Position numbers and translations under genes: made by a program. Shown piece after piece: positions 622-54,300 of a DNA stretch of 64,000 nt; position 1 is the stretch's first letter, and each line of letters begins with the position of its first letter. The notes under the pieces are model-generated. The model did no database searches. It was given only the letters and a program-made list of their open reading frames with translations, and had not been told where the DNA came from. This DNA is from Haliotis rufescens (taxonomy: Eukaryota): contig NW_025963891.1 in the NCBI RefSeq assembly GCF_023055435.1, positions 10,292,001 to 10,356,000 of the forward strand, given 5' to 3'.

Positions 622-1815
622 ATGTTCAGCTTGATAATCCTTGGTCTGTGCCTTGTAAACACCTTTGGTCAAAGAGTTGGTCATTCATCACTGGTGTACC
701 AATGGACATCATTAGAGTATGACTGGCCGAGTGACCGTGTGAAACAGGAGTTTATCAAGAATGGCAGTTTTGTGCTCGAAAATAACCTCATCGCCGGCGT
801 GAAGGTGTACAACGGTAGCGTGTACGTCACAGTTCCTAGATGGAAGAAAGGTGTGGCTTCTACTCTGAATGTCGTCACTGAGAAACACGGGAAACACATC
901 CTCAGACCCTTCCCCAGCTGGTCCATGCAGACTGTAGGTGACTGCACCGCCATCCAGTACTCCCAGAGCATGGAGATAGACCCCTTGACGGGATGGATGT
1001 GGATCATTGACACTGGAATTGGAAGAATTGCTGATGCCGGAGAGACGATCTGCCCTCCTAAACTTATCATCTACGACATCAACCGTAGACGTGTAGTCCG
1101 CACCCATTACTTCCCTGATCATGTTGCAGCTAGGTCCTCCTTCCTGAACGACATCGTCCTCCAACGAGTGGCTGGTCAAGCTGCCCTTGCGTACATCAGT
1201 GATGCTAGACAAGCACGTATAGTGACCTACGACTTCCGGTCTGACAAATCGTTCAGTTTTGCTGACAGCAGTATGTCAGCAGAATCTCCACCAACTTCTA
1301 TTGTTCATATCGACAACAAGTCCTACCCACAGACAGTTCCTGTAGACGGTATTGCCATGTCATCTGACTTCAGGTACGTGTATTACTCAGCTTTAGCAGG
1401 TACGAGCTTGTACCGAATACCCACAACCGTTCTCTCTGACCCTAAAGGCTCGTTCCAGCAATCTGTTCACAAAGTCGGTGTTAAACAATCTCAGTCTGAT
1501 GGTATGGCATTTGGGAAGAAGTTCATGTATTATAGTGCGCTTAGTTCAAACGGTGTGTACCAATGGAATTTCATGAAGGATCAGAACATGGCGGGGGGAC
1601 CGGATGACATAACTTTGACCTCTCAGGTTATGGTTGCTCATGATGACCAGCGGATGAAATGGGTCGACACCTTTGGTTTCGACAATGAAGGTTCACTCTG
1701 GTTCACAGCGAATAATCTTGGAAGCTTCTTTGCTCAAACGATGAACTTCTCCAATCCTAACATGTTCATATGGAAACTATATTTGGACGACAATGGGTAC
1801 CTTGGAACCAATTGA
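622..1815 (+). CDS. Yellow/MRJP-family secreted protein, paralog 1 (divergent; intronless CDS)
   Basis: 397 aa from ATG 622. Signal peptide MFSLIILGLCLVNTFG; family motifs YVTVPRW..GV.STL, LRPFPSW, DC.AIQ, WIIDTG, CPPKL.IYD, FLND, AYISD, DGIA, WVDT. AATAAA at 1870. Confidence 0.93.
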   Translation: MFSLIILGLCLVNTFGQRVGHSSLVYQWTSLEYDWPSDRVKQEFIKNGSFVLENNLIAGVKVYNGSVYVTVPRWKKGVASTLNVVTEKHGKHILRPFPSWSMQTVGDCTAIQYSQSMEIDPLTGWMWIIDTGIGRIADAGETICPPKLIIYDINRRRVVRTHYFPDHVAARSSFLNDIVLQRVAGQAALAYISDARQARIVTYDFRSDKSFSFADSSMSAESPPTSIVHIDNKSYPQTVPVDGIAMSSDFRYVYYSALAGTSLYRIPTTVLSDPKGSFQQSVHKVGVKQSQSDGMAFGKKFMYYSALSSNGVYQWNFMKDQNMAGGPDDITLTSQVMVAHDDQRMKWVDTFGFDNEGSLWFTANNLGSFFAQTMNFSNPNMFIWKLYLDDNGYLGTN

Positions 1816-2089
1816 AACTTTGTATTGAATACTTTTGCATGTACTATGTATCAATACAGACATCACTGCAATAAAAGTAGCCCCAAGGGACTCTTTTCTA
1901 TAATTATTTATGCAGTTCAATTTGGGTGCTTTAGATTATACGTGTAATATATAGTACAGCAATAGGCTTTCCCTGAACGTTTGTAGCTGAAAATAGGCAA
2001 ATGGAAGACGAGGGTGACAATCTCTTCAGTATCTCTGAGTTTATTTTCCCTTTCTTTATAGAGATTGAATTTGGTATGAGACCACTTTG

Positions 2090-2255
2090 AACAGTAGTTA
2101 AGTTACTTTACGGTGTGTCAGCTTAGGGTGGGAGGAATTCACGAAGTGATGCAGGTCGTAGAGGTTTATCACTTCGGTGGAACCAACGAATACGAATATC
2201 GTTCTGACAAACAGAGAATCGTAATCAGGGCAATTCTGGGATTCGAACCCACGAT
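2090..2255 (-). mobile_element. SINE family B fragment
   Basis: Contains tgtcagctta..gtgggagga...gaagtgatgcaggtc and gggattcgaaccc, the reverse complement of the family B body. Confidence 0.65.
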
Positions 2256-2699
2256 CGAGTTATAATTGAGGCTTCGTGTGTTTGTGATTAATTTGATCCA
2301 AGCAAACATCCACCCCTGTCTTTTTGTATGATGAGTTCATAGATACTTTTATCGTGATGTTTTTAGAATTCTAAATTTGAGGCAATCAACACCACACAGT
2401 GTTAGTCTCATACCCCTGGGGATAAAACAACATTTCGAAAATGGTACTGAAAATATACACAACGAAAAATGTTAAGCACCACATGTATGTTTTACAATAA
2501 TGGGTCAGTCGTACAAGCGTTGATGTTGAAACCCTGTTAACATGACCTGGGAAAAATTAATGTGGTTTGGAAGAAGACACTCCTGACAATAAGAAAACAT
2601 AAAAAGTTTATCCTGTTTTAAGATTTTAATCATAATTCTAACAAAAACTGTATTTGTGCAAAAACGTTAACCACAATAAGTATGGAGGTGCAGACTCAG

Positions 2700-3190
2700 G
2701 AACACAATTCCACATCACATGGATGATGAAAAATGTAATTTTCTGTCCAAAGATGACATTCTTGACACAAATAATCAATCGCGGGTAAACCCTCATTTGA
2801 CGTATTTTTGATCGTGGGAGATCCTGTACCGCATTGGTTTGCCCGTGTTTCGTACCAGACCAGTCTGCTTATTACGGTGTAATGATACCCTAGTTGACGT
2901 CCTATGCTTTTGAAGGTCATGCCTGTCATGCCATACGCCACCTGTGCACCTCTGATAACCTTCTTCGTGCCATGTTCACAGAATGCTTCAACAATGCAAG
3001 ACAGTAAGTTCTCACAATTGCGATGTTCAGATACTGCGTTTTGAAAAATGCATGGGTGGCATCCTGCACGTGCATGTCGTGCTGCGACGTGACGTCATAA
3101 TTGCCATTAGACTGTTCCACGGAACACTATTCTTAACTTATTCATCACGAAATTTACTGTTGTTGCGATTAGGGATAGTTCAGTGTTAAT
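2700..3190 (-). mobile_element. Tc1/mariner transposase 5' remnant
   Basis: Frameshifted HTH region MARRRLSEVHRW.../GMTFKSIGRQLGYHYTVISRLV starting at ATG 2973. Confidence 0.7.
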
Positions 3191-3330
3191 ATTTCCAGTG
3201 GTGCTTAACTTATTTCTTTGTGTATAGTTTATTTCAGAATAACAATCAGCAGCTAATAGATAAGATATGGGCTCACAGCAGATGGCACCAACCCAGTCTG
3301 CGAGTGTGACCAACCAAGACAGTCCAGCAT

Positions 3331-4530
3331 ATGACCGTGAGCATGTGTGCATTAAAAATCCTCCTGATCGCACTTCTTGGAAACAGGTTGGTGGATTCCG
3401 CCATTGTGTATAAGTGGCATGCTGTAGACTATGAATGGCCAAACACTTCAGTCAAACAGGAATTCATCAAAAATGGAAGTTTCATCATCACAAATAATCT
3501 AATCTCAGGCATTAAGATTTACAATGAAAGTGTGTACGTGACGGTTCCTCGATGGAGGAAAGGAGTTCCGTCTACTCTCAATGTAGTAGTGGAGAAGGAT
3601 GGGGAGGCAATCCTTAGACCCTTCCCCAGTTGGTCCATGCAGACAGTGGGTGACTGCTCAGCTATCCAGTACTCTCAGAGTCTTGAGATTGATCCTTCAA
3701 CTGGATGGATGTGGATTATTGACACTGGCTTACACTCAATCGCCGACCCGGGGCAGTTCATATGTCCCCCTAAGCTAGTTATCTACGATATAAACACGGA
3801 CAAGGTTATTCGAGTTCATCATTTTCCTGAAGTCGTCGTGCCAAAGATGCTGACGTTCCTGAATGACATCGTGGTTCATAAAATTTCAGGAAAACCTGCT
3901 TATGCTTACATCACGGATGCAGGAACAGCCAGACTAGTTGTTTATGATTTCCTAAAGGACAAATCGTATGCATTTGCACACAAGAGCATGGCAGCCGAGA
4001 GTGGTCCACCGAGTATGATCGACTTTGACCACACGCAGTTTAAGACAGATATTCCGATAGATGGCATTGCTCTTTCTCCCGACACACGGTATCTTTACTA
4101 TTGTTCCTTGGCATCAATGAAACTTTACCGTGTTCCCACATCAGTGCTTGCACAAGAAAATGGCGACATCAGCAGATCTGTGAAAGACCTTGGAAGCAAA
4201 GTTTCCCAGACGGGAGGCATGATATCTGGAAATAAAAGTTTGTTTTACGGAGCGTTGGGTTTGAATGCTGTCTTTAATTGGGACTTCACCAAGGACATGG
4301 CCATGGCAGCATCTGTTGACGACGTTACCCTGACAACACAGACTGTGGTGGCAAAGGATGACTTGAACATGCAATGGGTTGACAGCTTTGCTTTCGACAC
4401 TAATGGTTACCTCTGGTTTACAGTAAACAAACTGCCAAGCTTCCTTCAGAATACAATGGATTTTAATGCCACGGCGCCCTTCAATATGTTCATTTGGAAG
4501 ATTTATGTTGATGAAAAGAGTTATTTATAA
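3331..4530 (+). CDS. Yellow/MRJP-family secreted protein, paralog 2 (intronless CDS)
   Basis: 399-aa ORF (alternative ATG 3343), hydrophobic signal peptide, full set of Yellow/MRJP motifs; about 92% identical to paralog 3 by manual count. Confidence 0.93.
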   Translation: MTVSMCALKILLIALLGNRLVDSAIVYKWHAVDYEWPNTSVKQEFIKNGSFIITNNLISGIKIYNESVYVTVPRWRKGVPSTLNVVVEKDGEAILRPFPSWSMQTVGDCSAIQYSQSLEIDPSTGWMWIIDTGLHSIADPGQFICPPKLVIYDINTDKVIRVHHFPEVVVPKMLTFLNDIVVHKISGKPAYAYITDAGTARLVVYDFLKDKSYAFAHKSMAAESGPPSMIDFDHTQFKTDIPIDGIALSPDTRYLYYCSLASMKLYRVPTSVLAQENGDISRSVKDLGSKVSQTGGMISGNKSLFYGALGLNAVFNWDFTKDMAMAASVDDVTLTTQTVVAKDDLNMQWVDSFAFDTNGYLWFTVNKLPSFLQNTMDFNATAPFNMFIWKIYVDEKSYL

Positions 4531-6409
4531 ACCATTCGACATCAAACTGACGACAAGATGGTTCGTTTTACCCCAAACCCTACCATCAAAGTGAGAAGAA
4601 ATAGGGGTGACTATGGTATATACATGAAAGGAAAACGAATATGAAACTATTCCTATACAGTTTGTTTTAACTGAACTTCTCGCATCTACATGAATGTCAC
4701 CAGAAGACCACGTGCACCATTTGAAGTACTGGGCAGTAACATGATGTACATTGCACCTGCAGGTTTATGAACACACTTATAGCTCTTTAAAGATATTTCT
4801 TATAATGTCAAATTTGAATCCAGTTAGAATATACTGTTTCTGCTTCATATAAAAAAACCCACTTGATTTGTAAATTATGAAAATTTGTTTTAATTATTCA
4901 TCAATGTCGGGGGGGCCGGCTTGTAGTTAGCTGTTCCTCACTTTGAAGATTTCAGAGAACCTTATTCCACTAAGTGTACAGAAGATTTTCAATGCTAAGT
5001 CTATTTTACCAAAGACTTCCTTAAAATGTGGAAACGTTCATCCTGCATGTTTTGCGAATATAATAAGAGAGGCCTTTCCTGCAGAATCAGACACACACAA
5101 GCGTTTCAAGTATGCAAGACCATGAACAGAGTATGTGAATTTATGTACACTGAAACTGAGCCAAATATACACCTCGTCAAAAGTATCGTACCACCACCAT
5201 TTTTTGATAATCAGGTAAGATATGTAGCATATCTTTTGCATATAAATGAAATGTTCATGAAACTGTTTGGGAAAAGTTCTATGGTGACCAGAATCGGAAC
5301 AATTTTAGCTATTTCCTCATTGAAACAACTGATAATGAAAGTAAAATATAACATTATACAAATTGTTTGAAGAAATTTTATTCATGACAACATGTTGTTT
5401 GCAACAAATGTTGCAATCTCCATCAACCACCACCGTTAGATTTTGGCAGGAGGGGATTTGAGAGTCCATCAGAAAACACTCCCCTTCGAACGTCCACGAA
5501 AACAATGTCCCAACTGAAGTGTTAGCTTATCAAACTTGATGAAATTCATTTCAGAACACGCACAATTAAGAAAATCATACATGAACCACTATTTCTGGGC
5601 AACTAATATCTAAGGTCTGTCACTATCTGGCTTTGGATCTATGAAATCTTGAAATTGACAGGTCACACCATGCAGATACAGAGATAGTACCTACCTCGTG
5701 TCAAAATATCCGGCTCGTCTGCAGGCTAAAAAGCGGCTGTTCAGACATACTCATTTCCATTGGTAATCACATTGTACCAGCAGGCTCGATCATTCCCAGT
5801 AAATCTACAGGTTAATGTTGAACCATATCATAGATCGGGGTTGTCATCTTGCTTCATTTAACTAGCAACGGAGAATGTAAGCACAAGATTGTCAGCCATT
5901 GACAGCTGCGAGGTGTGAGTAAACGTGATGTAGGGTCAAGTTCTGCCACATCCAAGGTCGGGGTGGAGAGGCATTTATTTTGATGTTAATGTTGTTTACT
6001 GGGGGTAATTGCTAACTAACTAATAACACTTACACATGTTAAATGTATAGGAGAATGTTAATTCAAAAAGTTTGTTGTAAAAGATATTCGTTTAGTATTT
6101 TAAAACCGTCAGTCCACAGTGTACAACAGTGTACAGAGAAGGTTGGTAGAAACTAAAACAGCTGTCTTTGGACTAATTTTGGAGTGTTATTTGTCAACTT
6201 CTTTTGAAAAACTATGTGTTTTGAACACTTATTTTGAACTACTCACGACTATGGTGTTTTTAATCTTGAACTTTGATAATAATTGTTACATATATAACTA
6301 CCTGTGCCCACTTTTCGCAATGTTCTATAATTGCGGACCTGTGTGCCTGTGTTGTTACGCGTTGCAAGAGAGCACCGTTTTCAAAGCATTGTTGCCGTCA
6401 TGGTAGAAT

Positions 6410-6574
6410 GGAGATAAACCTACTGTGATTTGAAATTTGATGTAGTCCCACTGAAGAGTAGATACCTCTTTATTGTAATTTGGAACCTCTTGCTAAGCGC
6501 TCGGTATCTACTAAAGAGGTATCTACTCTACAGTGGTACTACATCAAATTTCAAAACACAGTAGGTTTGTTTCC
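6410..6574. repeat. Long inverted repeat / foldback (MITE-like)
   Basis: Arms of about 55-60 bp: aaacctactgtgatttgaaatttgatgtagtcccactgaagagtagatacctcttta and taaagaggtatctactctacagtggtactacatcaaatttcaaaacacagtaggttt. Confidence 0.8.
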
Positions 6575-6594
6575 TAAATGATCACTAGTTTAAG

Positions 6595-7070
6595 TCAGTG
6601 TCTGGTGCATCCACCCCGTACACGGGTCACACCCACAAGACATCTCCTCATGCTCAACATCAGATGCCTGATCCTCAACTGAGGAAAGTGTTGCCATTCC
6701 TGATACAATACCTTGGTCCCTTGCTCACCCAACGTCCCAACTGATCGCATAGAGATGCTCGACTGGATTCGGGTCTTGGCTTCAGGAAGGCCACGGCAGA
6801 GGCCATGGATTGTTGTGGAGATGGTCAGTCACAGCTCGTGCTCGTGCTGGTTTGGGTCGGTCATTATCATCTATGAAGACAGGATGTGTGACAAGTGCAT
6901 GGTAATCAAAATGAGGCACAACAAAACCGTCCAATGTGTTATCTTGGTACCTTTGTCCACTAAATGTCCCAGAACTGTAACCAAATCAAGTTTACAATCA
7001 AAAGAGCAACATCCCCATACCATCACTGAGCCGCCACCACATGCACACGCCACTGTTTCCTGGATGTTGC
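6595..7070 (-). mobile_element. Tc1/mariner transposase 3' remnant (DDE region and C-terminus)
   Basis: GGGSVMVWGCCS motif and C-terminal SMRRCL...RGGCTRH* typical of Tc1 transposases; frameshifted. Confidence 0.75.
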
Positions 7071-7219
7071 ACTGATGATGAGATGTTCCTCTTTGCCTCC
7101 AGACATGAGTTCTTCTACCATCAGTGGTGTGAATCTGTCATCAAACACGAATTTCTCTAATGAGAACCCCCAGGTGCGCATACCTAACTATGTTTGTCTT
7201 AAGAGGCAAATAACGGTAT

Positions 7220-7335
7220 CAGGTGGTCATGATATCAATCACTGGATTGTATGGTCCAGACTCGATAATTTAGAGACCACCCTCATATAGCTGGAATATT
7301 GCTGAGTGCGGCATAAAACAACAAACAGACAAACA
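7220..7335 (+). mobile_element. SINE-like family C, 3' fragment
   Basis: caatcactggattgt..ggtccagactcgat...catatagctggaatattgctgagtgcggc...aacaaac. Confidence 0.7.
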
Positions 7336-8324
7336 GGCATACGGCTCACATACACGCACCCAGAAGTTTAGGCAGTTACGGTGGCTACCATTCTTCAAGC
7401 AGATGCACCTTGTGACAAATCTCTACATTGTAAATGAAACTTTATATTTGGTGATGCTATACTTTGACGAGGGTATATATTGCCCTTGCATGTTATCTGA
7501 TCAAATTGCATGGTCCTTTGTAAATGTTGTACGATGATAGTAAGTCATCGATTATTTTTAACAACGAATGGAGAATCTAGTTTCGTAACCAAGTTCTTTT
7601 GGTTTTTCTGGAGCCCTCTCATAGATAGACCCTTCAAAATGCAAGGACTACTTTGCGGCATATCCAGTCAATTCCCATTTCTTTTGTCCACTCTGACATC
7701 AGTGTATCAAAACTTTCTTCCTCAATAAATCGGCTTTTTCGTTTGGAGATTTGAAGAAATGAGCTTCCCTATTGAAACACAGTATCCCATTTCGCGTCAA
7801 AATACGCTGTGAAAGGAAAATCACTTCCTTGTCATGTACTTAAATTAATGCACTGTAAACAAAGGGAAATGGCGATGACGCTCCACTGTGACGTCACAGC
7901 TACCGCTTGGCCTGAAACTAGGATTACGATATACATACGAGCTGGTGGTGAGATCAGGGCAGTTGTTTGTTGCTTTGAAATAACATATCATGGTGTGTGT
8001 CTAAATGTGTACTTTGTATGACTATTTAACTTGTTTTAAAAAGTTTTGCCAATCCTCTGTGTCAATATTAATCTGTTATCTTTTGTATTCTTTAAAGATT
8101 TTTATCATGTTAAATAGCTACATAACTTTATCATGATGACGTTACAAGTTTGAGACGACAAGATGTTCGTTCTCATGCTCCTGGAGATAAGACAATGTTG
8201 CGACTGAAAATAGCTTATATCACTGCGCAACCCGCAACTGCTAGCTAAGGTGTGGACCCACAGCAAGTGGCACCAAACCAGACCATAAAGCTCACAACTG
8301 TGATCAACCAAGACTGTCCAGTTT

Positions 8325-9524
8325 ATGACTGTAAGCATGTCTGCATTTATAATCCTCCTGATCGCACATCTTGGAAACAGGTTGGTGGATTCCGCCATTG
8401 TGTATAAGTGGCATGCTGTAGACTATGAATGGCCAAACACTTCAGTCAAACAGGAATTCATCAAAAATGGAAGTTTCATCCTCACAAACAACATCATCGC
8501 AGGCATTAAGATTTACAATGAAAGTGTGTACGTGACGGTTCCTCGATGGAGGAAAGGAGTTCCGTCTACTCTCAATGTAGTAGTGGAGAAGGATGGGGAG
8601 GCAATCCTTAGACCCTTCCCCAGTTGGTCCATGCAGACAGTGGGTGACTGCTCAGCTATCCAGTACTCTCAGAGTCTTGAGATTGATCCTTCAACTGGAT
8701 GGATGTGGATTATTGACACTGGTTTACACTCAATCGCCGAACCGGGGCAGTTCATATGTCCCCCTAAGCTAGTTATCTACGATATAAACACGGACAAGGT
8801 TATTCGAGTTCATCATTTTCCTGAAACCGTCGCTCCAAAGATGCTGACGTTCCTGGACGACATCGTGGTTCATAAAATTTCAGGAAAACCTGCTTATGCT
8901 TACATCACGGATGCAGGAACAGCCAGACTAGTTGTTTATGATTTCCTAAAGGACAAATCGTACACATTTGCACACAAGAGCATGGCAGCCGAGAGTGGCC
9001 CAGCTGCCATAATCGATTTTGACCACACTCAATTTAAGACAGACATACCGATAGATGGCATTGGTCTTTCACCCGACTCCCGGTATCTTTACTATTGTTC
9101 CTTGGCATCAATGAAACTTTACCGTGTTCCCACGTCAGTGCTTGCACAAGAAAATGGCGACATCAGCAGATCTGTAAAAGACCTTGGAAGCAAAGTTTCC
9201 CAGACGGGAGGCATGATAGTTGGAAGTAAAAGTTTATTTTACGGGGCGTTGGGTTTGAATGCTGTCTACAAATGGGATTTCACCAAAGACATAGCCATGG
9301 CGGCATCTGTTGACGACGTTACCCTGACAACACAACCTCTAGTGGCAAAGGATGACTCGTACATGCAATGGGTTGACAGCTTAGCTTTGGACACCAATGG
9401 CTACCTCTGGTTTACAGTAAACAAACTGCCAAGTTTCCTTCAGAATACAATGGATTTTAATGTCACGGCGCCCTTTAATATGTTCATTTGGAAGATTTAT
9501 GTTGACGAAAGGAATTATTTATAA
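8325..9524 (+). CDS. Yellow/MRJP-family secreted protein, paralog 3 (intronless CDS)
   Basis: 399-aa ORF (alternative ATG 8337), signal peptide, Yellow/MRJP motifs; AATAAA at 9680. Confidence 0.93.
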   Translation: MTVSMSAFIILLIAHLGNRLVDSAIVYKWHAVDYEWPNTSVKQEFIKNGSFILTNNIIAGIKIYNESVYVTVPRWRKGVPSTLNVVVEKDGEAILRPFPSWSMQTVGDCSAIQYSQSLEIDPSTGWMWIIDTGLHSIAEPGQFICPPKLVIYDINTDKVIRVHHFPETVAPKMLTFLDDIVVHKISGKPAYAYITDAGTARLVVYDFLKDKSYTFAHKSMAAESGPAAIIDFDHTQFKTDIPIDGIGLSPDSRYLYYCSLASMKLYRVPTSVLAQENGDISRSVKDLGSKVSQTGGMIVGSKSLFYGALGLNAVYKWDFTKDIAMAASVDDVTLTTQPLVAKDDSYMQWVDSLALDTNGYLWFTVNKLPSFLQNTMDFNVTAPFNMFIWKIYVDERNYL

Positions 9525-9777
9525 ACCTTTCCGCATCAAACTGACATCAAGATGAATTCTTTTAACCCCAAACTATTCATGTGTTTTGGGACATATGACT
9601 CACAAACTTCAGTTAGTTTTCGCTTCGTAATATACATATGAACATTCTCTTCCCGATAGCACTGTTATAAAACCTATTTAATAAACTTAAAACATTGGCG
9701 ATACTTACTTATTCTGATTCATAAACGATACATCATTGTGAAGACTAAATAATTTTAATAATGAAATACTGAGGATT

Positions 9778-9875
9778 AGAGTTGGTCCAGTCGTCTAAGG
9801 CGCCGAAACTCGCTGTGCAGAGTGAGTAGGAATCCCGGTTCGCCTCGAGATGTTCTGGGATTCGAACTCACGATC
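9778..9875 (+). mobile_element. SINE family B 5' fragment
   Basis: tggtccagtcgtctaaggcgccgaaactcgctgtgcagag head; located at the end of the 3' flank shared with paralog 4. Confidence 0.65.
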
Positions 9876-10045
9876 GAATTTTAAACGAAGTTTATTCTAT
9901 TTGGGATTGAACAGATCCTAGCAAATTATGGTGCCTTGAAATTCAGTATTAATCTGAGTTGAATTTGTTGTATGCAACTAAACCATTTAAAGGTGATGTA
10001 CTTTATAAATCATCTTCCCGAGGCAAGGGAGTTAACTGACTATAA

Positions 10046-10478
10046 AAGTCCAGTTTCCACCATTGCCGAACTAGGATGGAACTATGGAGTTATATTTTGG
10101 CTGGACTAATGAGTATATGCATAGTCCAATCAAAATCGCGTAACGAATTCGACATTCCGGTTCGTAAACTACCGTGCAGATTTCGGTCAATTGCAGGATT
10201 TGCAAAGCATTTATACTGACAACTTAGCGTCAACAGATATTTTCCAAATCTTTTCATGTTGTCTTTTCAATCCAGGGGCTCAAGTCATTTGATGCACTTC
10301 GCGAAGAAAAACCCGTTTTAGTACAATGTAGAGCTTGATTATCGATGAAATCGTTTTCACTGGGCGACGCCATATCATTTGAAGCATATGAGAGGTGGAA
10401 TCTGATATAGCCACTGGTGGCGCTACGATCGAAACCAGAAATTCAAGCCTTGTTCGGCAAGGGTGGAAACTAGACCTT
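10046..10478. mobile_element. MITE-like element with ~30-bp imperfect TIRs
   Basis: aagtccagtttccaccattgccgaactagg (10046-10075) is the near reverse complement of ccttgttcggcaagggtggaaactagacctt (10448-10478). Confidence 0.65.
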
Positions 10479-10614
10479 ACAGGAAGATAGTTAATACTGT
10501 CGTTTAAACAGTTGTAGTGTTATGTACTTTATTGATCAATAGAGGGATATTAGTGGCTGGCACTTTGCTTGAAAAATGCACTCTACAAGTCTTGTTCAGA
10601 ACATCCATCATTCT

Positions 10615-10796
10615 NNNNNNNNNNNNNNNNNNNNNNNNNNNNNNNNNNNNNNNNNNNNNNNNNNNNNNNNNNNNNNNNNNNNNNNNNNNNNNNNNNNNNN
10701 NNNNNNNNNNNNNNNNNNNNNNNNNNNNNNNNNNNNNNNNNNNNNNNNNNNNNNNNNNNNNNNNNNNNNNNNNNNNNNNNNNNNNNNNNNNNNNNN
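10615..10796. other. Assembly gap (N run)
   Basis: Run of n. Confidence 1.
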
Positions 10797-10849
10797 AATC
10801 TATGGCTAACACATTTTCATTTATATCAGTTATCCTGTTTCTTTATAAA

Positions 10850-11180
10850 CTGACGTCCAAAAGAAACTTTACCAACTGAAAATATATATTTCAGACAAAG
10901 CATACATTTTTTTCGATGAAGTCTATCTAAAACACATAACCTAAATACAACAATAGTTTATGCAGAAAATGTTAATCGTCTGTTACATGTTTGCGAGATA
11001 ACACGCGAAAAAGTGAAAAACACGTGCACCACGGACAACTGCAAATGCACGTGCGGGTAAGGGTATAAAACGATTGCAACGGCTAGTCAGACATCCACAG
11101 TGATAAAAAAAGCACAAAAGAAATGCCACGACTCACAGTCGAACAACGTGAACGAGCCTTGGGTATGGTACAGATGGGAA
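10850..11180 (+). mobile_element. Tc1/mariner 5' remnant with promoter and transposase start
   Basis: tgcacgtgc (11046), TATAAAA (11064), then ATG 11123 reading MPRLTVEQRERALGMVQMG, a typical Tc1 N-terminus. Confidence 0.65.
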
Positions 11181-11399
11181 AAGTTCTGAAACCTTGAATA
11201 ATTATCTGCAGGAGATTTCCGAAGAACATGTGTAACTGGACAGAACATATTTCATAAATTAGAAAGTGAAAAGATAAATTGTGCTGTTGTGTAAAATAGT
11301 GAAAGTGACAACACTATATCCCTTAACAGCTGTTATTTATATTTTGAGAATTATTAAATCTTTAGTTTGTAGAGTGTATTAAATTTGAATAAAAGTAGC

Positions 11400-13080
11400 G
11401 GAATTTTAAAAGATCATGATTTAGACACTTGATTTGAGTGCAACAACTCGCATGAATTGTTATCAGGGGAAATTACAGAAGAAGAAATTAAAGTAGCTGC
11501 CAATTTCTCAAAGTCTGGAAAATCTCCGGATATGGATGGTTTATCAATGTTTTTCAAAATTATGAAACACCCACTATGTAGATCAGCCTGTATTCCCTGA
11601 TCATTGGAATATTGGAATAATTTGCAACTTTATTTGAAAAAGGTAATAGGAGTGACCCAAATAATTACAGTGGAATGTCTTTACTTAATATCATGGGGAA
11701 AGTATTTACATCAATAGTTGATCATGGGTCGAGACTGTGATATTGATTAGAATTAAATGAATTGATAGAAAGGGTCTACGATAGATAACATCTCAGAAAT
11801 ACTTACGTAAGCCTAAACCCTTTTATGCAGCTTTCCTTTGATTTCCGTAAAGCCTTTGATAAGGTTGATAGGAATAAGTTATTGTATATGTTATTACAGA
11901 AGGGTTTTCATGGTAAAATGTATAATGTTTTAGAAAGCATGTACAGAAATGGTTGTGCTTGTGTACACTTAGGAAATTCGAGAAGTGGTATCTTTTCAAC
12001 GTCATGGGGTTGTATGCTTAGTCGTTTACTTTTCATATTTTTCATTTACCAGTTGGCTACTGATGTGATGGTAAGTGAACCGAATGATATCTTTGTAACT
12101 GATATGATTGATGTCATCAAGATGTTGTTGTTTGCAGATGATACTGATTTGGTGTCAGATATCAGTTGTTGACCTACAAAAAAAGCTATTGGCATAAGAA
12201 TGTTTTTGTCAAAAGAGGAATAAAGAGTTAAATTTAGAAAAATACGAGTCGTCTAAGGCGCCGCGATTCGCTGTGCAGAGTTGCACGCCAGAAACCTATG
12301 ATTGTGAGTCCGAATCCCGCTTTGCCCCGGGTTTCTAGGTTTGTCAGCACCATACCCGTGCTCGTGGGTTTCACCGAAGTGATAAACGTCTGAGACCTGC
12401 ATCACTTCGAGCTTTCCCCCCACATTAAGCTGACACGCCGTGATATTAGACGACTGGGCCACCCGTGCCCCCCCCCCCCCCCCCCCTATGTAGATAATAG
12501 AGGAGAAAACTGGGCGTCACATGTTAAAATGTTTTATTCCAAACAGGATTCTCATACGTCTGGATATCCCAGGAGTTTGAGGATGAATCTTATTTTATGA
12601 GTATAGCAGATGTATCAAAAGATAAATACTTCTGTATTTCTCGAGCCTGCATAATATATAACATCACATTTAACACAGATCTTATGAGAATTCTTGCTAA
12701 GTTTCGGTGTCTATCACATTGTTTGAAAATACAAATGCGACGTTAGAGTAAAACAGTATATGATTTGAGATGTCTAATTTGTGATAAATGTAACTTGATG
12801 GAAATCGAAAATGAATACCATTTTTTCCTGGTTTGTCACTACTGCAGGCCAAGCAGAACTATGTTGTTACCGATATACTATCATCGTTATCCATCAAGAC
12901 AGAAGCTGATAGATTTGATGCCAACCAGAAATAGAAAAACTTTTGAAAGGTTTAGCCATTTTCATTTAAAGGAAATTAATGATATGAATGAAATTCCATG
13001 GTTGATGTACATTCATGATATAGACATAGTATCGAAGATTTTCATCAGGGCAGAATCCTATGGGTTTGTAGCTTAATGTC
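11400..13080 (+). mobile_element. Non-LTR retrotransposon (LINE) ORF2 remnant: RT plus C-terminal Cys/His motif
   Basis: Degraded motifs ITEEEIK...KSPDMDG, DPNNY, DFRKAFDKVDR, GCMLS.LLF, LLFADD, and CDKCNLMEIENEYHFFLVC; interrupted by a SINE at 12248. Confidence 0.85.
12248..12472 (+). mobile_element. SINE family B copy with its 5' head inverted at the 3' end
   Basis: Body agtcgtctaaggcg...gccgtgata is followed by ttagacgactgggccacccgtgccccc, the reverse complement of the head. Confidence 0.8.
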
Positions 13081-13726
13081 CCGTTATGTTATACCCAGTG
13101 TCATCAAGATATACTTTTTAAAGGCGATCCAATTGTAAATTTCATGATTAATGCAATGTGACTTCACAGAATTCATGATAAGTATACATTTACAATTTAT
13201 AAACCACATGCCATTGGCAATGTGTGTAAGATTGTATTCTGGGCTGCGGGGCCTCCAAGTCTGTCATTTCGGCTGACATACGAGATGGTGGTGGGATCAG
13301 GGCAGTTGTTTGATGCCTTTTAGACTTTTAGACATATGACTCTTTTGGGGTCTAAATATGTACTTTGCATGACTATGTAATATGTTTTAAGTTTTGCCAA
13401 TCCTCTGTGTCAATTTAACCTGTTATCTTTTGTATTTTTATGATTCTTTTATGTTAAATAGTTGCATAATTGCATCAGGATGACTTTACAATTCTAAGCT
13501 GAATGCAATCAACACGACACTATGCTAGTTCTTAGCACCTGGAGATAAGACAATGCTGCGACAATGGTGCTGAAAATAGTTTGTGTCATTGCGCAGCTAC
13601 TAGCTAAGGTGTGGACCTACAGCAGATGACACAACCCCGGAGTATATAGCTTACGACCGTGAGCAGACCAGACAGTCCAGCTTACGACTGCGACCAACCC
13701 AGACTCTCCGGTTGACGACTCTGAAC

Positions 13727-14914
13727 ATGTCGGCCTTTACAATTCTCCTGATCACCATCCTTGGCCACCAGTTGGTGGATTCCGCCATTGTGTATAAGTG
13801 GCATGCTATAGACTATGAATGGCCAAGCACTTCAGTCAAACAAGCATCCATCAAAAACGGAAGTTTCATCATAAAAAATAACCTCCTCTCTGGCATAAAG
13901 ATCTACAATGAAAGTGTGTACGTGACGGTTCCTCGTACGAAGAAAGGCGTTCCTTCTGCTGTGAATGTGATAGTGGAGAAGAATGGGGAGGCAATCCTTA
14001 GACCCTTCCCCAGTTGGTCCATGCAGACAGTGGGTGACTGCTCAGCTATCCAGTTCGCCCAGAGTTTTGAGATTGATCAGTCAACTGGATGGATGTGGAT
14101 TATTGACACTGGCTTACATATAATCGCCGACCCTGGGCAGTTCTTGTGTCCCGCTAAACTAGTTATCTACGATATTAACGCTAAGAAGGTCATCCGAGTC
14201 CATACTTTTCCTGAAGCCGTCGCGCCAAAGATGCGGACGTACCTGAACGACATCGTGGTCCATAAAATTTCAGGAAAGCCTGCTTATGCTTACATCACCG
14301 ATACTGGAACAGCCAAACTTGTCGTTTATGATTTCAGAAAGGACAAATCGTACACATTTGCACACAAGAGCATGGCAGCAGAGAGCGGCCCAGCTACCAT
14401 AATCGATTTTGACAACACGAAATTTGTGTCAAAAACAGCGATAAATGGCATTGCTCTTTCACCCGACTCCCGGTACCTCTACTACTGCCCCTTGGCGTCA
14501 ATGAAACTCTATCGTGTCCCCACGTCAGTGCTTGCGCAAGAAAATGGTGACATTAGCAGATCTGTGAAAAACCTAGGAGACAAAGTTTCCCAGACGGGTG
14601 GCATGATGGCTGGCAGTAAAAGTTTGTTTTACGGAGCGTTGAATAAGAATGCTGTCTATAAATGGGATTTCACCAAGGACATGGCCATTGCAGCATCTGT
14701 TGACGACGTTACCCTGACAACACAGACCCAGGTGGTAAAGGATGAAGCGCTCATGAACTGGGTTGACAGCTTTGCTTTCGACACCAGTGGCCACCTCTAC
14801 TTTACAGTCAATAACGTGCCAAAGTTCCTTCAGAATACAATGGATTTTAAAGACACGGGCCCGTTTAATATGTTCGTTTGGAAGATTTATGTTGGCGAAA
14901 AGAATTATTGGTAA
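13727..14914 (+). CDS. Yellow/MRJP-family secreted protein, paralog 4 (intronless CDS)
   Basis: 395 aa from ATG 13727; signal peptide MSAFTILLITILGHQLVDS; Yellow/MRJP motifs; AATAAA at 15118. Confidence 0.93.
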   Translation: MSAFTILLITILGHQLVDSAIVYKWHAIDYEWPSTSVKQASIKNGSFIIKNNLLSGIKIYNESVYVTVPRTKKGVPSAVNVIVEKNGEAILRPFPSWSMQTVGDCSAIQFAQSFEIDQSTGWMWIIDTGLHIIADPGQFLCPAKLVIYDINAKKVIRVHTFPEAVAPKMRTYLNDIVVHKISGKPAYAYITDTGTAKLVVYDFRKDKSYTFAHKSMAAESGPATIIDFDNTKFVSKTAINGIALSPDSRYLYYCPLASMKLYRVPTSVLAQENGDISRSVKNLGDKVSQTGGMMAGSKSLFYGALNKNAVYKWDFTKDMAIAASVDDVTLTTQTQVVKDEALMNWVDSFAFDTSGHLYFTVNNVPKFLQNTMDFKDTGPFNMFVWKIYVGEKNYW

Positions 14915-15843
14915 ACCTTTCGACACCAACCCGACAAGCTAATTTGACTACCCAAAATTATTCACATACTCTGGGACTTAAGACTAATACGCTTTCGCAT
15001 ACAGTTAGTTCGGTTCTGTGATATAGATCTGTACTTTCTGTTATTGTCAGGAACATCATGGTGATGCTTACTTATTCTGATTAAAAAACATTCTTGTGAA
15101 GACTAAATTCCATGTATAATAAAATACTGATGATTACAACTGCCTTATGTGTCTGTTCAGTCTGGTGACAATAACCTCATTAATCCAGATTATATGATTC
15201 CTAGTAAACTATTTCAAATCAATACATTCCGTATTAACGAATCACGGTGCGCAATAGCAAGCTCGTCTAGAATGTGAGGTTTACGGACTAACGAGGTTTA
15301 ATTGTATATGAAGTCGAGCCACAGTGTCTTGTTTAAAAAAAAAAATATTATGACTTTTAATTTTTTTTTGCGAAAACAGGGCAGTGTGTGGCACCGGGCT
15401 TTGGTTAAACATTGTCGAGACATCTCGTGTCGCCAACTGTCTAATGATTGATAATGTAATTAACAATTTGGTTCGAAAGCCCACTGACAGAAAAATGGCA
15501 TTATCATACCTCCAAGTCAGCATGTCAGAAAGATGAGATCTGACTGGTCCACGTGATCTTGATAAAACACTGTGTGCCCCACCTTTGAGGGGAATACATT
15601 TCTCAGCGGGGGAATAAATCTCGTATACCCCGCCGCGTGCAAGTCAGGTTGCACGAGGATTCTGATAGGCAGAATAAAAGCCTTTATACCCCGCTTCAAA
15701 GCAAAAAGCCGCGTGCTTTTTCTGAGTCAAGTCATGTTACAGCGCAAGCTAACCTCAACTCAATCGAACAGCTGCTTTCTATCAATGTTGTACTTGTTTG
15801 AATTATTTAACAATGTCATATTAAAACATATCGGTAAGATACA

Positions 15844-16424: not shown

Positions 16425-16925
16425 ACATTCCGGGGTAAATCAGTGAGTATTGCTGATGCGACGGTATTTCAGAGGTAAATCAATGTGTATTGCTGATGCG
16501 ATAGCATTTCAGGGATATATCAATGAGTATTGCTGATGCGACGGTATTTCAGAGGTAAATCAATGTCTATTGCTGATGCGGTAGTATTTCAGGGATAAAT
16601 CAATGTGTATTTGCTGATGCGATAGTAATTCAGGGATAAATCAATGTTTATTGCTGATGCGATAGTATTTCAGGGATAAATCAATGTCTATTGCTGATAC
16701 GATAGTATTTCAGGGATAAACCAATGTCTTTTGCTGATGCGATAGTATTTCAGGGATAAACCAATGAGTATTGCTGATGCGACGGTATTTCAGTGGTAAA
16801 TGAATGTGAGTTGCTGGTTTAACGGTAAATCAATATATTTTGCTGGTGCGACGGCATTTCAGGGGTAAATCAATGTAAATTACTGAAGCTACGGTATTTC
16901 AGAAGAAATTCAGTGTATATTACTG
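16425..16925. repeat. 40-bp minisatellite (~12 copies)
   Basis: Unit aatcaatgtgtattgctgatgcgatagtatttcagggata; tgctgatgcg recurs at 16451 and 16491. Confidence 0.95.
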
Positions 16926-23160: not shown

Positions 23161-23700
23161 CTTTGCCCGAGAATTTCCCACAGATGCTCTCATGGGGAGA
23201 CACGCAGCGAGTCAGTCCAATCTCCGTATGCCTTCTTGTCGTAGAAAATCGGTGACAACCTGAGAACGACGTGGCCTGGCATTGCCATCTTGCAGTTCAA
23301 ACTTTCTGCCGATAATTCCAGCGAATAGAACAACAACAGGACGCAAACCTTCGTCAACATTTCTCTAACCAGTCAAATGTTCATTCACAATAACCAAACC
23401 AGTTCGCCTGCCATGTGTGATACCGCCCAACACCATGACACTGCGACCCAATAGCTATTATGGTAAAAAATTGTTGCCCTTGCATACCACTCGCCGCTAC
23501 TTCGTCAACAACGTTTTCTGCCATCCATTGGCGCACAGTCCGTTCCTGGTGTTGCCTGGCCAATCTCAGTCTTTGCCGCCTGTGGTAAACTGTTAGGGTC
23601 ACGCCCTTCACAGGGCTCCGTGTTTTCAGGTGTGCTGTACAGAGCCGGTGTTTAACGGTAGATGTTGAAATTCGCCTTCCGGTCATTGTATGGAATTCTC

Positions 23701-28545: not shown

Positions 28546-30064
28546 TCTTCATTAACCTCCTGCATCTGGCATTTTGGCCCAAGTAATCCCTGTAACAAAA
28601 TGCAAGAATCATTTGACATGATAAGAACACCTTATGACGTCACATGATAATCAAGATGTAATGAACCGTAACAGTCATTGTTGGTTTCATGCAACGACAT
28701 CTGGAGACACGTGCAATTACGTCATCCGTGCTGTGTCAGCTGGACATATATAACAATGACAATAACAAGCACCATGCGGCTGCGGACAACAGTCAGAGGT
28801 CACCGTGGGATGACCTACAGGTGGACATGTTCATTTGTCTTGATGGGGAAGGGAGCATAAAGAATGATAGTAATTTTCTTTTTTTCATTTTTAGCCACCA
28901 TCAAACATGGGTGCATACTTTCTTCTACCCGGCAGTTTATAACCATCCTCCGGTTTCAAGCGGTAAGAAGTGGTTGCTTGTATGGAATATTTGTGTTGCA
29001 ATAAATACTTTTCCAACTCATAGTAGGGTTTAAACAAATATAATTTGCTTTTTGACGACAGGATTATTCGCAATGCCAATTTGAGTAACTTATCCTTCAT
29101 TAATAGCAGTGTTGTCATGTACAGGTTGTTGTTTTCCACAAATAACCTGTCTAATTGACTTTTTGGCGCGTTCTCGTGTTTGATAGAAATAAAAACCTCT
29201 TAAACATATTTTTTCGTTAAGCATAGAATTTTATGGTACGTAGAATAATACAAATGCAGTTGAAGATGATATGTGTGTTAGAAAAGTGTATGTATATAGT
29301 TCAAGCCAGTCAATCGTTATTCAAAATGTCCTACAACAAAATACCTCTCTCCTATTGACCGGTTTGTACCAAGTATACGTGTTACCATGTAACGCCCTCC
29401 AATCAATAACCATACGGCAACTCGATACCACGACACACAAAGACCCCCCTTGTCACGTCGCAGTGTCCAAGGCAAGTCTGGCACCGGCCCAATAAACATA
29501 TCTCAAAGAAAATGAGATAAAGACTTACAGAATTAAAGCACTACCTATGGTTTGGTGTGTATTGATTTCCTTCTTGGTTGGGAGTTTGGAGACAATTAAA
29601 GAAATATACTTGGAGTGGAGTATTGTTTGAAATATCGTTTTTATGCAGTCTTCTTACGTTGAGCTGTCTTGTTAAAACATTGCACGTCTTAGACACTATA
29701 AACTAGAGAGCACAGAAATTTCTTTGAAAGTGTTCGGTGGTCGATGAGTCCTAAAACAGTCTATGTATATTGTCAATGTAAAAGAAAAACTTACATATGT
29801 TAAAAAACTTCAAAATATATTGTTAAATTATATTAAAATTATAAAATTGAATTATAAAAAAAACGGGACGTGTGCCTACATCAGTGACTAATATATCCTC
29901 TTGACAAAAAAACAAACAAGTTGAAAATAAGATATTGTGTAGATCTTATGCATACACCGACTGTACATTTCGAAACAATGTGTGCTATGAAGTTGTAGGA
30001 GATGATATGGGCACGAACGCTATTTTAACTACAATTTAATAATGCGACGCTATTCTATACTTTT

Positions 30065-30067
<3 letters not shown>

Positions 30068-30129
<62 letters not shown>

Positions 30130-30850
30130 AACGGACACACACAGATACACATAGCGACACACACACATGTACACATATCAAAACACAGAGACACACACAC
30201 ACATACGTATAGCGAACCACACAGAGACACANNNNNNNNNNNNNNNNNNNNNNNNNNNNNNNNNNNNNNNNNNNNNNNNNNNNNNNNNNNNNNNNNNNNN
30301 NNNNNNNNNNNNNNNNNNNNNNNNNNNNNNNNNNNNNNNNNNNNNNNNNNNNNNNNNNNNNNNNNNNNNNNNNNNNNNNNNNNNNNNNNNNNNNNNNNNN
30401 NCAGACACACATATATACACATACTGAAACACACATATACNNNNNNNNNNNNNNNNNNNNNNNNNNNNNNNNNNNNNNNNNNNNNNNNNNNNNNNNNNNN
30501 NNNNNNNNNNNNNNNNNNNNNNNNNNNNNNNNNNNNNNNNNNNNNNNNNNNNNNNNNNNNNNNNNNNNNNNNNNNNNNNNNNNNNNNNNATATACACATA
30601 GCGAAACACACATACAGACACATATATACACATAGCGAAACACACATAGCGAAACACACATATACACATAGCGAAACACACAGAGACACATACACAGACA
30701 CAGAGCAAAACACACGCACATATCCACGTACATTGCGAAACACACACAGACACATACACAGACACAGAGCAAAACACACGCACATATACATGTATATAGA
30801 GAAACACACACATACACAGACACACGCATATACACATAGCGAAACAGACA
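30068..30850. repeat. (GA)n microsatellite and CA-rich compound repeat containing two assembly gaps (30232-30401, 30441-30589)
   Basis: About 30 GA units, then cacatagcgaaacaca-type low-complexity repeats. Confidence 0.95.
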
Positions 30851-31044
30851 TTGTGTTGTGTGGACATTTATTTGTGCTGCAAAGTCCATGAAAACACTCT
30901 ACCGCCAATCAGTCATTGAGGATTGCGATTGGCCGGGTCGGAAGACCCCGTCTGATTGTAACCTACAGGACTGGCATGCTTTATCACGATCCTTGGTCAT
31001 CAGACAGCTTTGTGAGACCCTTCTTCGTCCCCGAGTCAAAAGAT

Positions 31045-32035
31045 TGGAAGATAGGTGGAACGGTAGAGAGACAAACAGGCAGTTGTATGTAGATAGGTGG
31101 GACGGTAGAGAGACAAACAGACAGTTGTAGGTCGATAGGTGTGACGGTAGAGAGACAAACAGACAGTTGTAGGTAGATAGGTGTGACGGTAGAGAGACAA
31201 ACAGACAGTTGTATGTAGATAGGTGGGACGGTGGAGAGACAAACAGACAGTTGTAGGTAGATAGGTGTGACGGTAGAGAGACAAACAGGCAGGTGTAGGT
31301 AGATGGGTGTGACGGTAGAGAGACAAACAGGCAGTTGTAGGTAGATAGGTTTGACGGTAGAGAGACAAACGGACAGTTGTAGGTCGATAGATGTGACGGT
31401 AGAGAGACAAACAGACAGGTGTAGGTAGATAGGTGGGACGGTAGAGAGGCAAACTGACAGTTGTATGTAGATAGGTGTGACGGTAGAGAGACAACGGGCA
31501 GTTGTAGGTAGATAGGTGTGACGGTAGAGAGACAGACAGACAGTTGTAGGTAGATAGGTGTGACGGTAGAGAGACAGACAGACAGTTGTAGGTAGATAGG
31601 TGTGACGGTAGAGAGACAGACAGACAGTTGTATGTAGATAGGTGTGACGGTAGAGAGACAACGGGCAGTTGTAGGTAGATAGGTGTGACGGTAGAGAGAC
31701 AGACAGACAGTTGTAGGTAGATAGGTGTGACGGTAGAGAGACAAACAGGCAGTTGTAGGTAGATGGGTGGGACGGTAGAGAGACAGACAGACAGTTGTAG
31801 GTAGATAGGTGTGACGGTAGAGAGACAGACAGACAGTTGTAGGTAGATAGGTGTGACGGTAGAGAGACAGACAGACAGTTGTAGGTAGATAGGTGTGACG
31901 GTAGAGAGAAAAACAGGCAGATGTAGGTAGATAGGTGTGACGGTAGAGAGACAAACAGACAGTTGTAGGTCGATATGTGTGATGGTAGAGAGACAAAGAG
32001 CATTTGTAGGTAGATAGATGTGACGGTAGAAAGAC
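31045..32035. repeat. 42-bp minisatellite (~23 copies)
   Basis: Unit agataggtgtgacggtagagagacaaacagacagttgtaggt; 14-aa periodicity in the spurious ORFs. Confidence 0.95.
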
Positions 32036-32786
32036 GAACAAATAAACAGATGGATGGACGGACGAACAGTTGTAGATAGATAGAAAGGTCGGTAGAAAGG
32101 AAAACAGACAGATGGATGGACTGGCGGACAGGTTTAGATAGATAATGTATATATAAATAGATATAGCGGAGTTGGTAGATTTTTGCCTTCATAATTCAAA
32201 CTGTTAGGGTGAGCTACGCTGACATGTACAGCTTAATCAGCACAGCCATTGCGTTCTGACGTTGCTTCAACTGTATGTATTTGATTTGATCATTTCTGGT
32301 TTCTGCGGGTCTGACAAATGGGAAATTGAATGTCGATAAACAGCTAAACATTCCATGTCAGATAACAGTCAGAAAATAGTCTAAAGCACACTGGGGTCCC
32401 AGTGTAAGGCAATTGGCGTCGTTCTCGTTGGGGGTCTTATAGCGATCCGCTTATAGTGTCCGACTGAGAGAGAGAGATTTGGCCACATTGACGTATATGG
32501 AAGCGGTACCGGGGACCTTCCTTAACGCTTCCCTCCATTTCAATCTCAGAGTGATTTTTGTCACCACAAAGTGAATATGAAATGTCTCCATTATGTTTGT
32601 TCTTAGGTATTTCGATCAATTTATTTATAATATTTTTTACACTGACATGTAGCTATAAATAAATGCAACTCAATTTCCGGAAACTTGAATGAGCAGTCTA
32701 TGTGTTCCAAACACGATGCTGCGAAATTCTTGAGAACACGCGGAATAATTAATTTTTCACGTTGGGTTTTCTTTTCATCTCGATAA

Positions 32787-34709: not shown

Positions 34710-34920
34710 ATGTCAAGGAATCGGCCGTCGAGCAGCCAGTCCCGCACGGCGTGGGGCGATGAGGGCATGGAGGGGTATGGGCCAGATATTCGGGATGACC
34801 CCGACCTCCCTGATCAAGTTTACATGGACCAGGACCGCCGAGGAAACGTGCCCGCCGTTAGGACCAAGAGCACGCCACAGAACACTGGGTGCATGGGAAC
34901 CTTCGTCCGTGGTCTTAGAT
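34710..34920 (+). CDS. PKD2: PKD2 coding exon 1
   Basis: [17 protein letters not shown]...GTFVRGLR; donor GTAAGT, phase 1. Confidence 0.85.
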
Positions 34921-53803: not shown

Positions 53804-54300
53804 TGATTGCAAGACATGGTACACCGATGGTGTGGATCGTGTGATTGCAAGACATGGTACAATGATGGTGTGGATCGTGTGATTGCAAGACATGGTACAC
53901 CAATGTTGTGGAAAATGTGTGATTGCAAGACATGGTACACCGATGGTGTGGATCATGTGATTGCAAGACATGGTACACCGATGGTGTTGATTGTGTGATT
54001 GCAAGACATGGTACACCGATGGTTTGGATCGTGTGATTGCAAGACATGGTACACAGATGGTGTGGATCATGTGTTTGCAAGACATGGTACACCGATGGTG
54101 TGGATCGTGTGATTGCAAGACATCGTACACCAATGGTGTTGATTGTGTGATTGCAAGACATGGTACACCGATGGTATGGATCGTGTGATTCCAAGACATG
54201 GTACACAGATGGTGTGGATCATGTGATTGCAAGACATGGTACACCGATGGTGTGGATCGTGTGATTGCAAGACATGGTACACCGATGGTGTGGATCGTGG
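53804..54300. repeat. 38-bp minisatellite (~13 copies) inside a family C element
   Basis: Unit tgattgcaagacatggtacaccgatggtgtggatcgtg; flanks 53703-53803 and 54300-54322 align to family C. Confidence 0.92.

Follow-up and report, generated by a model that had tools for sequence, protein, structure and literature searches.

Introduction

Yellow/MRJP genes that lack introns have been reported across molluscs by Rosani et al. (2019; PMC6678240). In the tables of that study, Yellow genes without introns come from octopus, oysters, scallop, mussels and abalone, and those with introns from brachiopod, rotifer, copepod, lancelet and some bivalves; the octopus and oyster genes have no introns, those of other bivalves 0-3, of Lingula 2-5, of a copepod 3-4 and of lancelets 6-7. 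For the abalone Haliotis discus hannai, its supplement gives a cluster of three intronless genes and a single intronless gene beside polycystin-2. Here, we analysed 64,000 nucleotides of the red abalone, Haliotis rufescens (contig NW_025963891.1, positions 10,292,001 to 10,356,000; this whole stretch is hereafter called the window), which carry four Yellow/MRJP genes, g1 to g4, in tandem. The locus and its pattern are thus already known, as the molluscan family, the intronless state, the Haliotis cluster and the polycystin-2 neighbour have all been published.

The H. discus hannai genes HDSC00080CG00220-240 (Supplementary File 2 and the sequence file of PMC6678240) are of the g1, g2 and g3 types, in the same order and on the same strand as here. 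They differ in that the 2017 assembly splits the genes over scaffolds, while the four red abalone genes and PKD2 lie on one contig. Moreover, the H. discus hannai g2 model has an aberrant start, and no g4-type entry is seen among the six H. discus sequences shown. A first-pass annotation of the window, made from its letters, had implied that the family is rare outside insects; it is in fact widespread in molluscs. What our analysis adds is small, namely the comparison of the tunnel residues, the differences among the paralogues and the missing C-terminal tail. According to PMC6678240 and PMC13538373, no biochemical function has been tested for Yellow proteins of the yellow-x type or from outside insects. 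The remaining use of the locus lies in the question of the ancestral Yellow chemistry, for which four paralogues differing at the most conserved tunnel residues form a handy test set.

Results and Discussion

Four single-exon genes in tandem

The cluster consists of four intact single-exon Yellow/MRJP genes in tandem (Table 1). Each gene reads uninterrupted from ATG to stop on the plus strand, the single-exon status concerning the coding sequence (CDS). The four same-strand open reading frames (ORFs) of about 400 residues without coding introns, described in the first-pass annotation, are therefore real, with lengths of 395-399 residues. The Pfam search that it had proposed places all four in the family: PF03022 (MRJP) matches with 125-149 bits, against a cut-off of 19.8, and is the one Pfam domain in each protein. 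The first nine of the 120 listed homologues are Haliotis proteins, 50-82% identical, in agreement with the mollusc-like genome that had been recognized. With their intronless CDSs, their position in the mollusc clade and their clustering in Haliotis, the genes belong to the molluscan intronless dopachrome conversion enzyme (DCE)/yellow group.

The signal peptides that had been read from the four ORFs correspond to a hydrophobic N-terminus in each protein, as judged by hydropathy only (best nine-residue Kyte-Doolittle mean, 2.9-3.4). Beyond the N-terminus, no 19-residue stretch of g1-g4 exceeds 1.12 on the same scale. Judging from these features, the four products are likely to be secreted. The proteins fall into two classes: g1 (class I) is 52-57% identical to g2-g4 (class II), within which g3 is 92% identical to g2, and g4 is 80% identical to g2 and g3. 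The computed isoelectric points are 8.9 for g4 and 5.5 for both g2 and g3. A tblastn search with the four proteins found no fifth copy or remnant in the 64-kb window, in which a run of N interrupts the cluster between g3 and g4.

Probable descent from an old molluscan gene

Where did the cluster come from? The first-pass annotation suggested that the founder may have arrived by horizontal transfer or retroposition. A recent entry of this kind into the abalone or gastropod line, from a microbe or through a retroposed copy, would account for the intronless CDSs, and it draws on the patchy distribution of the family and the existence of bacterial homologues. The similarity searches point elsewhere. 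Among the 120 matches listed, the Haliotis proteins are followed by those of scallops, snails, clams, a mussel, a chiton, a lancelet and a foraminiferan; the identities are mostly 35-51% for the named non-abalone molluscs, 41% for lancelet, 40% for Reticulomyxa and 34-37% for hexapods. On the bacterial side, 94 plasmid records match, of which the best 25 reach at most 28.9% identity. A pattern scan of the GTDB genomes with g1, which detects close relatives only, gave 28 pattern matches and no relative.

We then placed the genes in a tree of 69 rows, comprising the four window proteins, 57 named proteins, the two halves of a fused H. rubra model and six bacterial proteins, the last taken from plasmids alone (6 of the 94 records); unnamed metagenome matches and some near-duplicates were left out. 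All 19 Haliotis rows form one clade (support 100/99) within a mollusc group of 43 rows (96/94), and the six bacterial rows stand apart (100/99). The sister group of the Haliotis clade is not resolved, which leaves some room for a foreign founder. The hexapod rows form a group of their own, and none of them bears a yellow-x label. The closest relatives are thus animals, namely molluscs, with no nesting among microbes. With mollusc relatives closest, the bacteria apart and a single Haliotis clade inside the molluscs, there is no support for a recent transfer. In addition, cephalopods, bivalves and gastropods all have intronless copies (PMC6678240), and the copies in the cluster share non-coding flanks. 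We therefore regard a recent transfer or retroposition as the least probable of all the readings discussed here, and at the level of this lineage the suggested foreign founder is not borne out. The intron comparison proposed along with it gave a divided answer: intron-bearing members do exist in Lingula, a copepod and lancelets, but intronless copies are found in other molluscs as well, according to the tables of PMC6678240. An ancient bacterial transfer into early animals is a separate, published possibility (PMC6678240 and PMC13538373, both citing Ferguson et al. 2011).

Within Haliotis, each window gene pairs one-to-one with an H. cracherodii protein at 96-98% identity, and the g2/g3 pair is also present in that species. 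Class I is represented by a single row in the window and by three rows in each of H. asinina and H. rubra. The g3 and g4 units share about 400 bases of non-coding sequence upstream and about 250 downstream of the CDS, and the g2 and g3 units share about 90 bases upstream and about 50 downstream. These shared non-coding flanks indicate DNA duplication, rather than retroposition, within the cluster. Together with the single Haliotis clade, they bear out the lineage-specific tandem expansion that the first-pass annotation had proposed. We conclude that, very probably, the genes descend from an old molluscan gene and were multiplied within Haliotis by tandem duplication at the DNA level.

The class I/class II split is old, and the synonymous divergence (dS) between g1 and g2-g4 is saturated. 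The three class II pairs have ratios of nonsynonymous to synonymous divergence (dN/dS) of 0.26, 0.31 and 0.34, indicating purifying selection. The g2 and g3 genes share an identical tract of 223 bases in the 5' third of the CDS, as compared to 94% identity overall, and none of 5000 shuffles of the 68 g2/g3 differences reached this length. The tract likely reflects gene conversion, with a local collapse of the assembly as the alternative.

A RefSeq model that joins g1 and g2

In RefSeq, g1 and g2 appear as one protein of 811 residues, XP_046354205.2, the halves of which equal g1 and g2 exactly. Could the two be one gene for a two-propeller protein? Two-domain Yellow proteins have been validated in Crassostrea oysters (PMC6678240), and a similar fused model exists in H. 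rubra (XP_046570094.1). In the window, the fused model would need a splice donor that starts with the g1 stop codon, TGA, and an acceptor that ends in GT, and no canonical splice path from g1 yields its linker. Moreover, an AATAAA of its own lies behind g1 and g2 begins with a separate signal-like N-terminus, H. cracherodii and H. discus have one model for each orthologue, and the fused H. rubra model uses another linker, between two class I copies. Because the splice sites are non-canonical and g1 carries its own AATAAA, we read the fusion as mis-joined. A genuine two-propeller gene is very unlikely; the H. rufescens model is likely an annotation error, as is the H. rubra fusion, and the g1+g2 model likely needs splitting.

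Two further observations, both from contigs, were given no weight: no contig of the four sequencing runs described below covers 2479-3186, the stretch that contains the linker piece, a hole that proves nothing by itself, and in one study two of the g1 contigs stop at 1884 and 1888, downstream of the AATAAA. In both fused models, that of H. rufescens and that of H. rubra, an internal signal-like peptide is retained. Among the homologues, four proteins of 808-1352 residues (P0132-P0135) contain two to four matched Yellow stretches and are either multi-domain forms or fused models.

Predicted fold and tunnel site

A structure model of g1, built from a 147-row alignment, has a predicted local distance difference test (pLDDT) score of 95.4, and the fold result covers g1. 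Its best matches are Aedes DCE (9W1K; Z score 46.0, root-mean-square deviation (rmsd) 2.1 over 351 aligned residues) and MRJP1 (5YYL; Z 45.3, rmsd 2.3 over 352), followed by sand-fly LJM11 (3Q6K; Z 39.3), an Anabaena protein (2QE8; Z 37.9) and a putative SMP-30-family lactonase (2P4O; Z 26.6). The top four are 9W1K, 5YYL, 3Q6K and 2QE8, and g1 is accordingly predicted to have the six-bladed beta-propeller of the solved family members.

The residues predicted to line the tunnel mouth are strongly conserved. In the 147 aligned proteins, N176 is kept in 138, D177 in 144, D/N242 in 144, D293 in 112 and D349 in 144; in the six bacterial homologues, N176, D/N242 and D349 are kept in all six and D293 in five. 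The set shared from bacteria to abalone comprises N176/D177, D194, D/N242, D293, W347 and D349. The four paralogues differ at positions 176, 242 and 293 (g1, N/D/D; g2, N/D/G; g3, D/D/G; g4, N/N/G), and these residues are identical in the H. cracherodii orthologues. As far as the sequences go, these differences suggest a divided specificity. An Arg residue after the DTG motif is found in 105 of the 147 aligned proteins and is absent in the Haliotis rows shown; as the two alignments place it differently, we treat it as a motif difference.

The positions also recall the SMP-30/gluconolactonase propellers. At E-values up to 1, the Pfam SGL profile matches 12 of the 18 proteins scanned, and ten of these twelve matches lie in one blade register. 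By our reading of the profile positions in this register, 176, 242 and 293 would correspond to Asn103, Asn154 and Asp204 of SMP-30 (ligand names from PMC3551927). The putative equivalents, in a register derived from weak matches, are N176, D242 and D293 in g1, with Gly at 293 in g2-g4.

A crude hydropathy test detects a hydrophobic C-terminal tail in none of the 19 Haliotis rows, in 12 of 33 other molluscs and in six of nine hexapods, and it is present in lancelet. Such tails, which we take to resemble a glycosylphosphatidylinositol signal, stand at the end of many Yellow proteins of scallops, mussels, lancelet, and bees or wasps (homologues P0014-P0119).

Expression and tissue

Two studies provide four probable RNA runs whose contigs cover g1, extending up to 573-1888, with 0-1 differences, and g2 with 0-3 differences. 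The RNA status of these runs is an automatic guess, none being on record as RNA, and the contigs are compatible with transcription of g1 and g2. The contig depth of g3 is low and may come from cross-mapping of g2. Rosani et al. report one of three H. rufescens genes at more than 100 transcripts per million in kidney and liver (PMC6678240).

Shell pigmentation had been put forward as one possible function. In the shell proteome of the greenlip abalone, H. laevigata (PMC6003135), no yellow, MRJP or royal-jelly entry, and no matching peptide motif, was found in the main text and 24 of the 27 supplementary files, in which entries without names could hide one. A shell role is therefore without support in these files. 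We infer that the main site of action is the kidney and digestive gland, and not the shell.

Proposed function and its alternatives

What, then, might these proteins do? In our preferred explanation, to which we assign a probability of about 0.5, g1-g4 are old molluscan Yellow genes, duplicated in tandem, that encode secreted propeller enzymes with an Asn/Asp site. The proteins would be freely secreted six-bladed propellers that act on a small polar metabolite through the predicted Asn/Asp ring at the tunnel mouth. N176/D177, D242, D293 and D349 could form a metal-binding or acid-base site, as in the SMP-30/gluconolactonase propellers; in g1, D349 might, as a guess, replace the missing equivalent of Glu18. 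The g1 protein would keep the full residue set, and g2-g4, with D293 changed to Gly, would have an altered chemistry or serve for binding only. The chemical part of this explanation, that is, small-metabolite enzymes secreted in the viscera and acting through the Asn/Asp site, is a tentative proposal from the g1 model, at rather less than even odds.

Several observations weigh against this explanation. As for descent, the monophyly of all molluscs reaches only 96/73, and the tree samples bacteria from plasmids alone, with the unnamed metagenome matches outside it. As for the site, the register is not fixed at the level of residues, since a shift by one blade is seen in two of the 12 SGL matches and in the weak regucalcin matches (E 0.17-0.2). 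At the position putatively equivalent to Glu18 of SMP-30 (58, derived from the blade pattern), all 19 Haliotis rows have Ala, Ser or Thr, and three of the four genes, g2-g4, have Gly at the Asp204 equivalent. The Pfam SGL cut-off of 26.3 is not reached, g4 scoring 14.4 bits and g1 and g2 giving no match (g3 was outside the scan). The best fold match is a genuine dopachrome conversion enzyme, tied with MRJP1. As for the tissue, the octopus gene is expressed in skin and bivalve genes in gill and mantle (PMC6678240), a transcript of the family is reported from scallop gonad (PMC3774672), and a yellow-like protein with a single peptide stands next to peroxidasin in a chiton radula table (PMC6351634), which fits quinone chemistry. 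A slight hint in the other direction is a sugar-metabolism gene beside the homologue in two of six bacterial loci.

In the first functional alternative, the proteins act as dopachrome or dopaminechrome tautomerases and accelerate the formation of melanin for wound repair, immune encapsulation, or shell and skin pigment, in place of the DCT that gastropods lack. Rosani et al. found no DCT in gastropods and bivalves and proposed a melanin role (PMC6678240); the fold match to 9W1K, the secreted-type N-termini and the octopus skin expression all suit this idea. The tunnel does not: where Aedes DCE has Y, R, T/S, F and N/D, g1 has Q115, S116, N176/D177, D242 and D349/T350. Furthermore, dopachrome activity is reported for only some insect Yellow proteins, the high abalone expression is in kidney and liver (both PMC6678240), and the greenlip shell proteome files contain no such entry. 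A literature search, outside which subscription papers fell, returned no paper naming the catalytic residues of 9W1K. We consider a tautomerase unlikely, although it is the stronger of the two functional alternatives.

In the second, the proteins are non-catalytic secreted binders or matrix proteins, acting in mucus, egg jelly, or symbiont or amine handling, like MRJP1, LJM11 and the tortoise-beetle Yellow-x. Such co-options are common in the family (PMC6678240, PMC13538373), and repeated duplication is typical for abundant secreted products. The loss of D293 in g2-g4 and the absence of the Arg after DTG would also fit a protein without catalysis. The conservation of the polar ring from bacteria to abalone, in contrast, points to catalysis, at least in g1. 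We mapped by eye, through a profile alignment, nine of the 11 described pocket residues of LJM11 (Y90, Q91, F178, F223, F325, T327, D328, N342 and F344; PMC6678240, PMC5094789), and a single one is identical in g1 (N342, which is N364; F325 is W347). As only one of the nine is identical, the amine binding of the sand-fly type that the first-pass annotation had raised seems unlikely from the residues. A binder is the more doubtful of the two alternatives, and secreted enzymes with an Asn/Asp site are favoured over both.

A bolder extension of the enzyme proposal concerns the family as a whole. The ancestral Yellow, kept in molluscs, some hexapods and bacteria, might have been, instead of a melanin enzyme, a metal-dependent propeller enzyme akin to gluconolactonase and paraoxonase, with its Asn/Asp site rotated. 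The abalone cluster would then be a natural mutant series, with the full set in g1 and D293G, N176D and D242N in g2-g4, that has lost the membrane anchor and is secreted in the kidney and digestive gland. We regard this extension as speculative and rather improbable; if it were true, the original Yellow chemistry would come to light from the four recombinant proteins. The same literature search returned no paper on a site of the SGL type in the family and, on the function of abalone Yellow proteins, nothing beyond PMC6678240.

Other features of the window

The first-pass annotation had placed the cluster next to a 14-exon PKD2. The multi-exon polycystin gene is indeed present, but it starts about 20 kb downstream of the cluster; 14 exons are plausible, as we read by eye 12 open exon-like pieces at 38717-48700 and a likely first exon at about 34.7 kb.

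Table 1. Coordinates of the genes, duplication units and other features in the window.
Feature	Position	Strand	Remarks
g1, Yellow/MRJP, class I	622-1815	+	397-aa ORF; tunnel residues N176, D242, D293, D349
g2, Yellow/MRJP, class II	3331-4530	+	399-aa ORF; N, D, G, D at 176/242/293/349
g3, Yellow/MRJP, class II	8325-9524	+	399-aa ORF; D, D, G, D at 176/242/293/349
g4, Yellow/MRJP, class II	13727-14914	+	395-aa ORF; N, N, G, D at 176/242/293/349
Poly(A) signal AATAAA behind g1	1870-1875	+	from sequence
Linker piece of the fused RefSeq model	2982-3003	+	22 bases, flanked AG...GT
g2 duplication unit	3243-4578	+	matches 8228-9573 at 92% (self-blastn)
g3 duplication unit	7933-9778	+	matches 13276-15136, 79% over 1917 columns (self-blastn)
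Assembly gap (N run) between g3 and g4	10615-10796	.	from letters
Decayed reverse-transcriptase (LINE-like) fragment, g3-g4 spacer	11825-12172	+	PF00078, E 1.3e-6, 28.8 bits against a cut-off of 29.6
Tc1/Tc3-type transposase fragment	23381-23698	-	PF01498, E 1.5e-8
Polycystin-2 gene, multi-exon	34711-48700	+	PF20519, PF08016; limits approximate, last exon not located
Sodium:solute symporter, first exon	61953-62432	+	PF00474

Repeats are frequent in and around the cluster. Decayed LINE-like reverse-transcriptase pieces extend over 11825-13076 between g3 and g4, with a short interspersed repeat inserted at about 12250-12450. Short interspersed repeats at 1-450, 2110-2306, 7235-7320, 9783-10600 and 12247-12446 have very high contig depth and belong to abundant SINE- or MITE-like abalone families. 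An inverted repeat of about 165 bases at 6410-6574 (self-match 80%) resembles a hairpin or MITE. Tandem repeat arrays at 16440-16900, 30036-32195, 41290-41980 and 53694-54301 give long spurious ORFs, and one array, with units of about 120 bases, lies within a PKD2 intron. A GC-richer stretch at 55289-57112 contains overlapping frames like those of a decayed retroelement, presumably of a DIRS-like kind from its look; the two frames scanned gave no Pfam match.

Comparison with known systems

Among the described proteins, Aedes aegypti DCE (9W1K, 9W2C) shares the family and the fold with the abalone proteins, but the identity is 24% and the tunnel-mouth residues differ. Lutzomyia LJM11 likewise shares the fold (rmsd 2.6 over 340 residues) and the conserved N342, but differs in eight of the nine mapped pocket residues, with acidic residues in abalone where LJM11 has F223 and T327. 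Apis mellifera MRJP1 is the best PDB sequence match (E 5e-31) and is also the product of a lineage-specific secreted expansion; that expansion was independent, and the ND and WxD motifs are missing from MRJP1. The bee and wasp relatives carry the hydrophobic tail that Haliotis lacks. The insect yellow-x genes are intronless as well (PMC6678240), and yellow-x is described as functionally uncharacterised (PMC13538373).

The bacterial MRJP-family proteins (Anabaena 2QE8 and the six plasmid-borne proteins) have the ND, [DN]G, DG and WxD[ST] motifs in common with the abalone genes. Finally, SMP-30/gluconolactonase (PF08450) supplies the next structural neighbours after the Yellow family, and g1 has Asn or Asp at the putative Asn103, Asn154 and Asp204 positions. 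The abalone proteins depart from it in having no Glu18 equivalent, in the loss of the Asp204 equivalent in g2-g4, in scores below the Pfam cut-off, and in the extra conserved Asp349 on blade 6.

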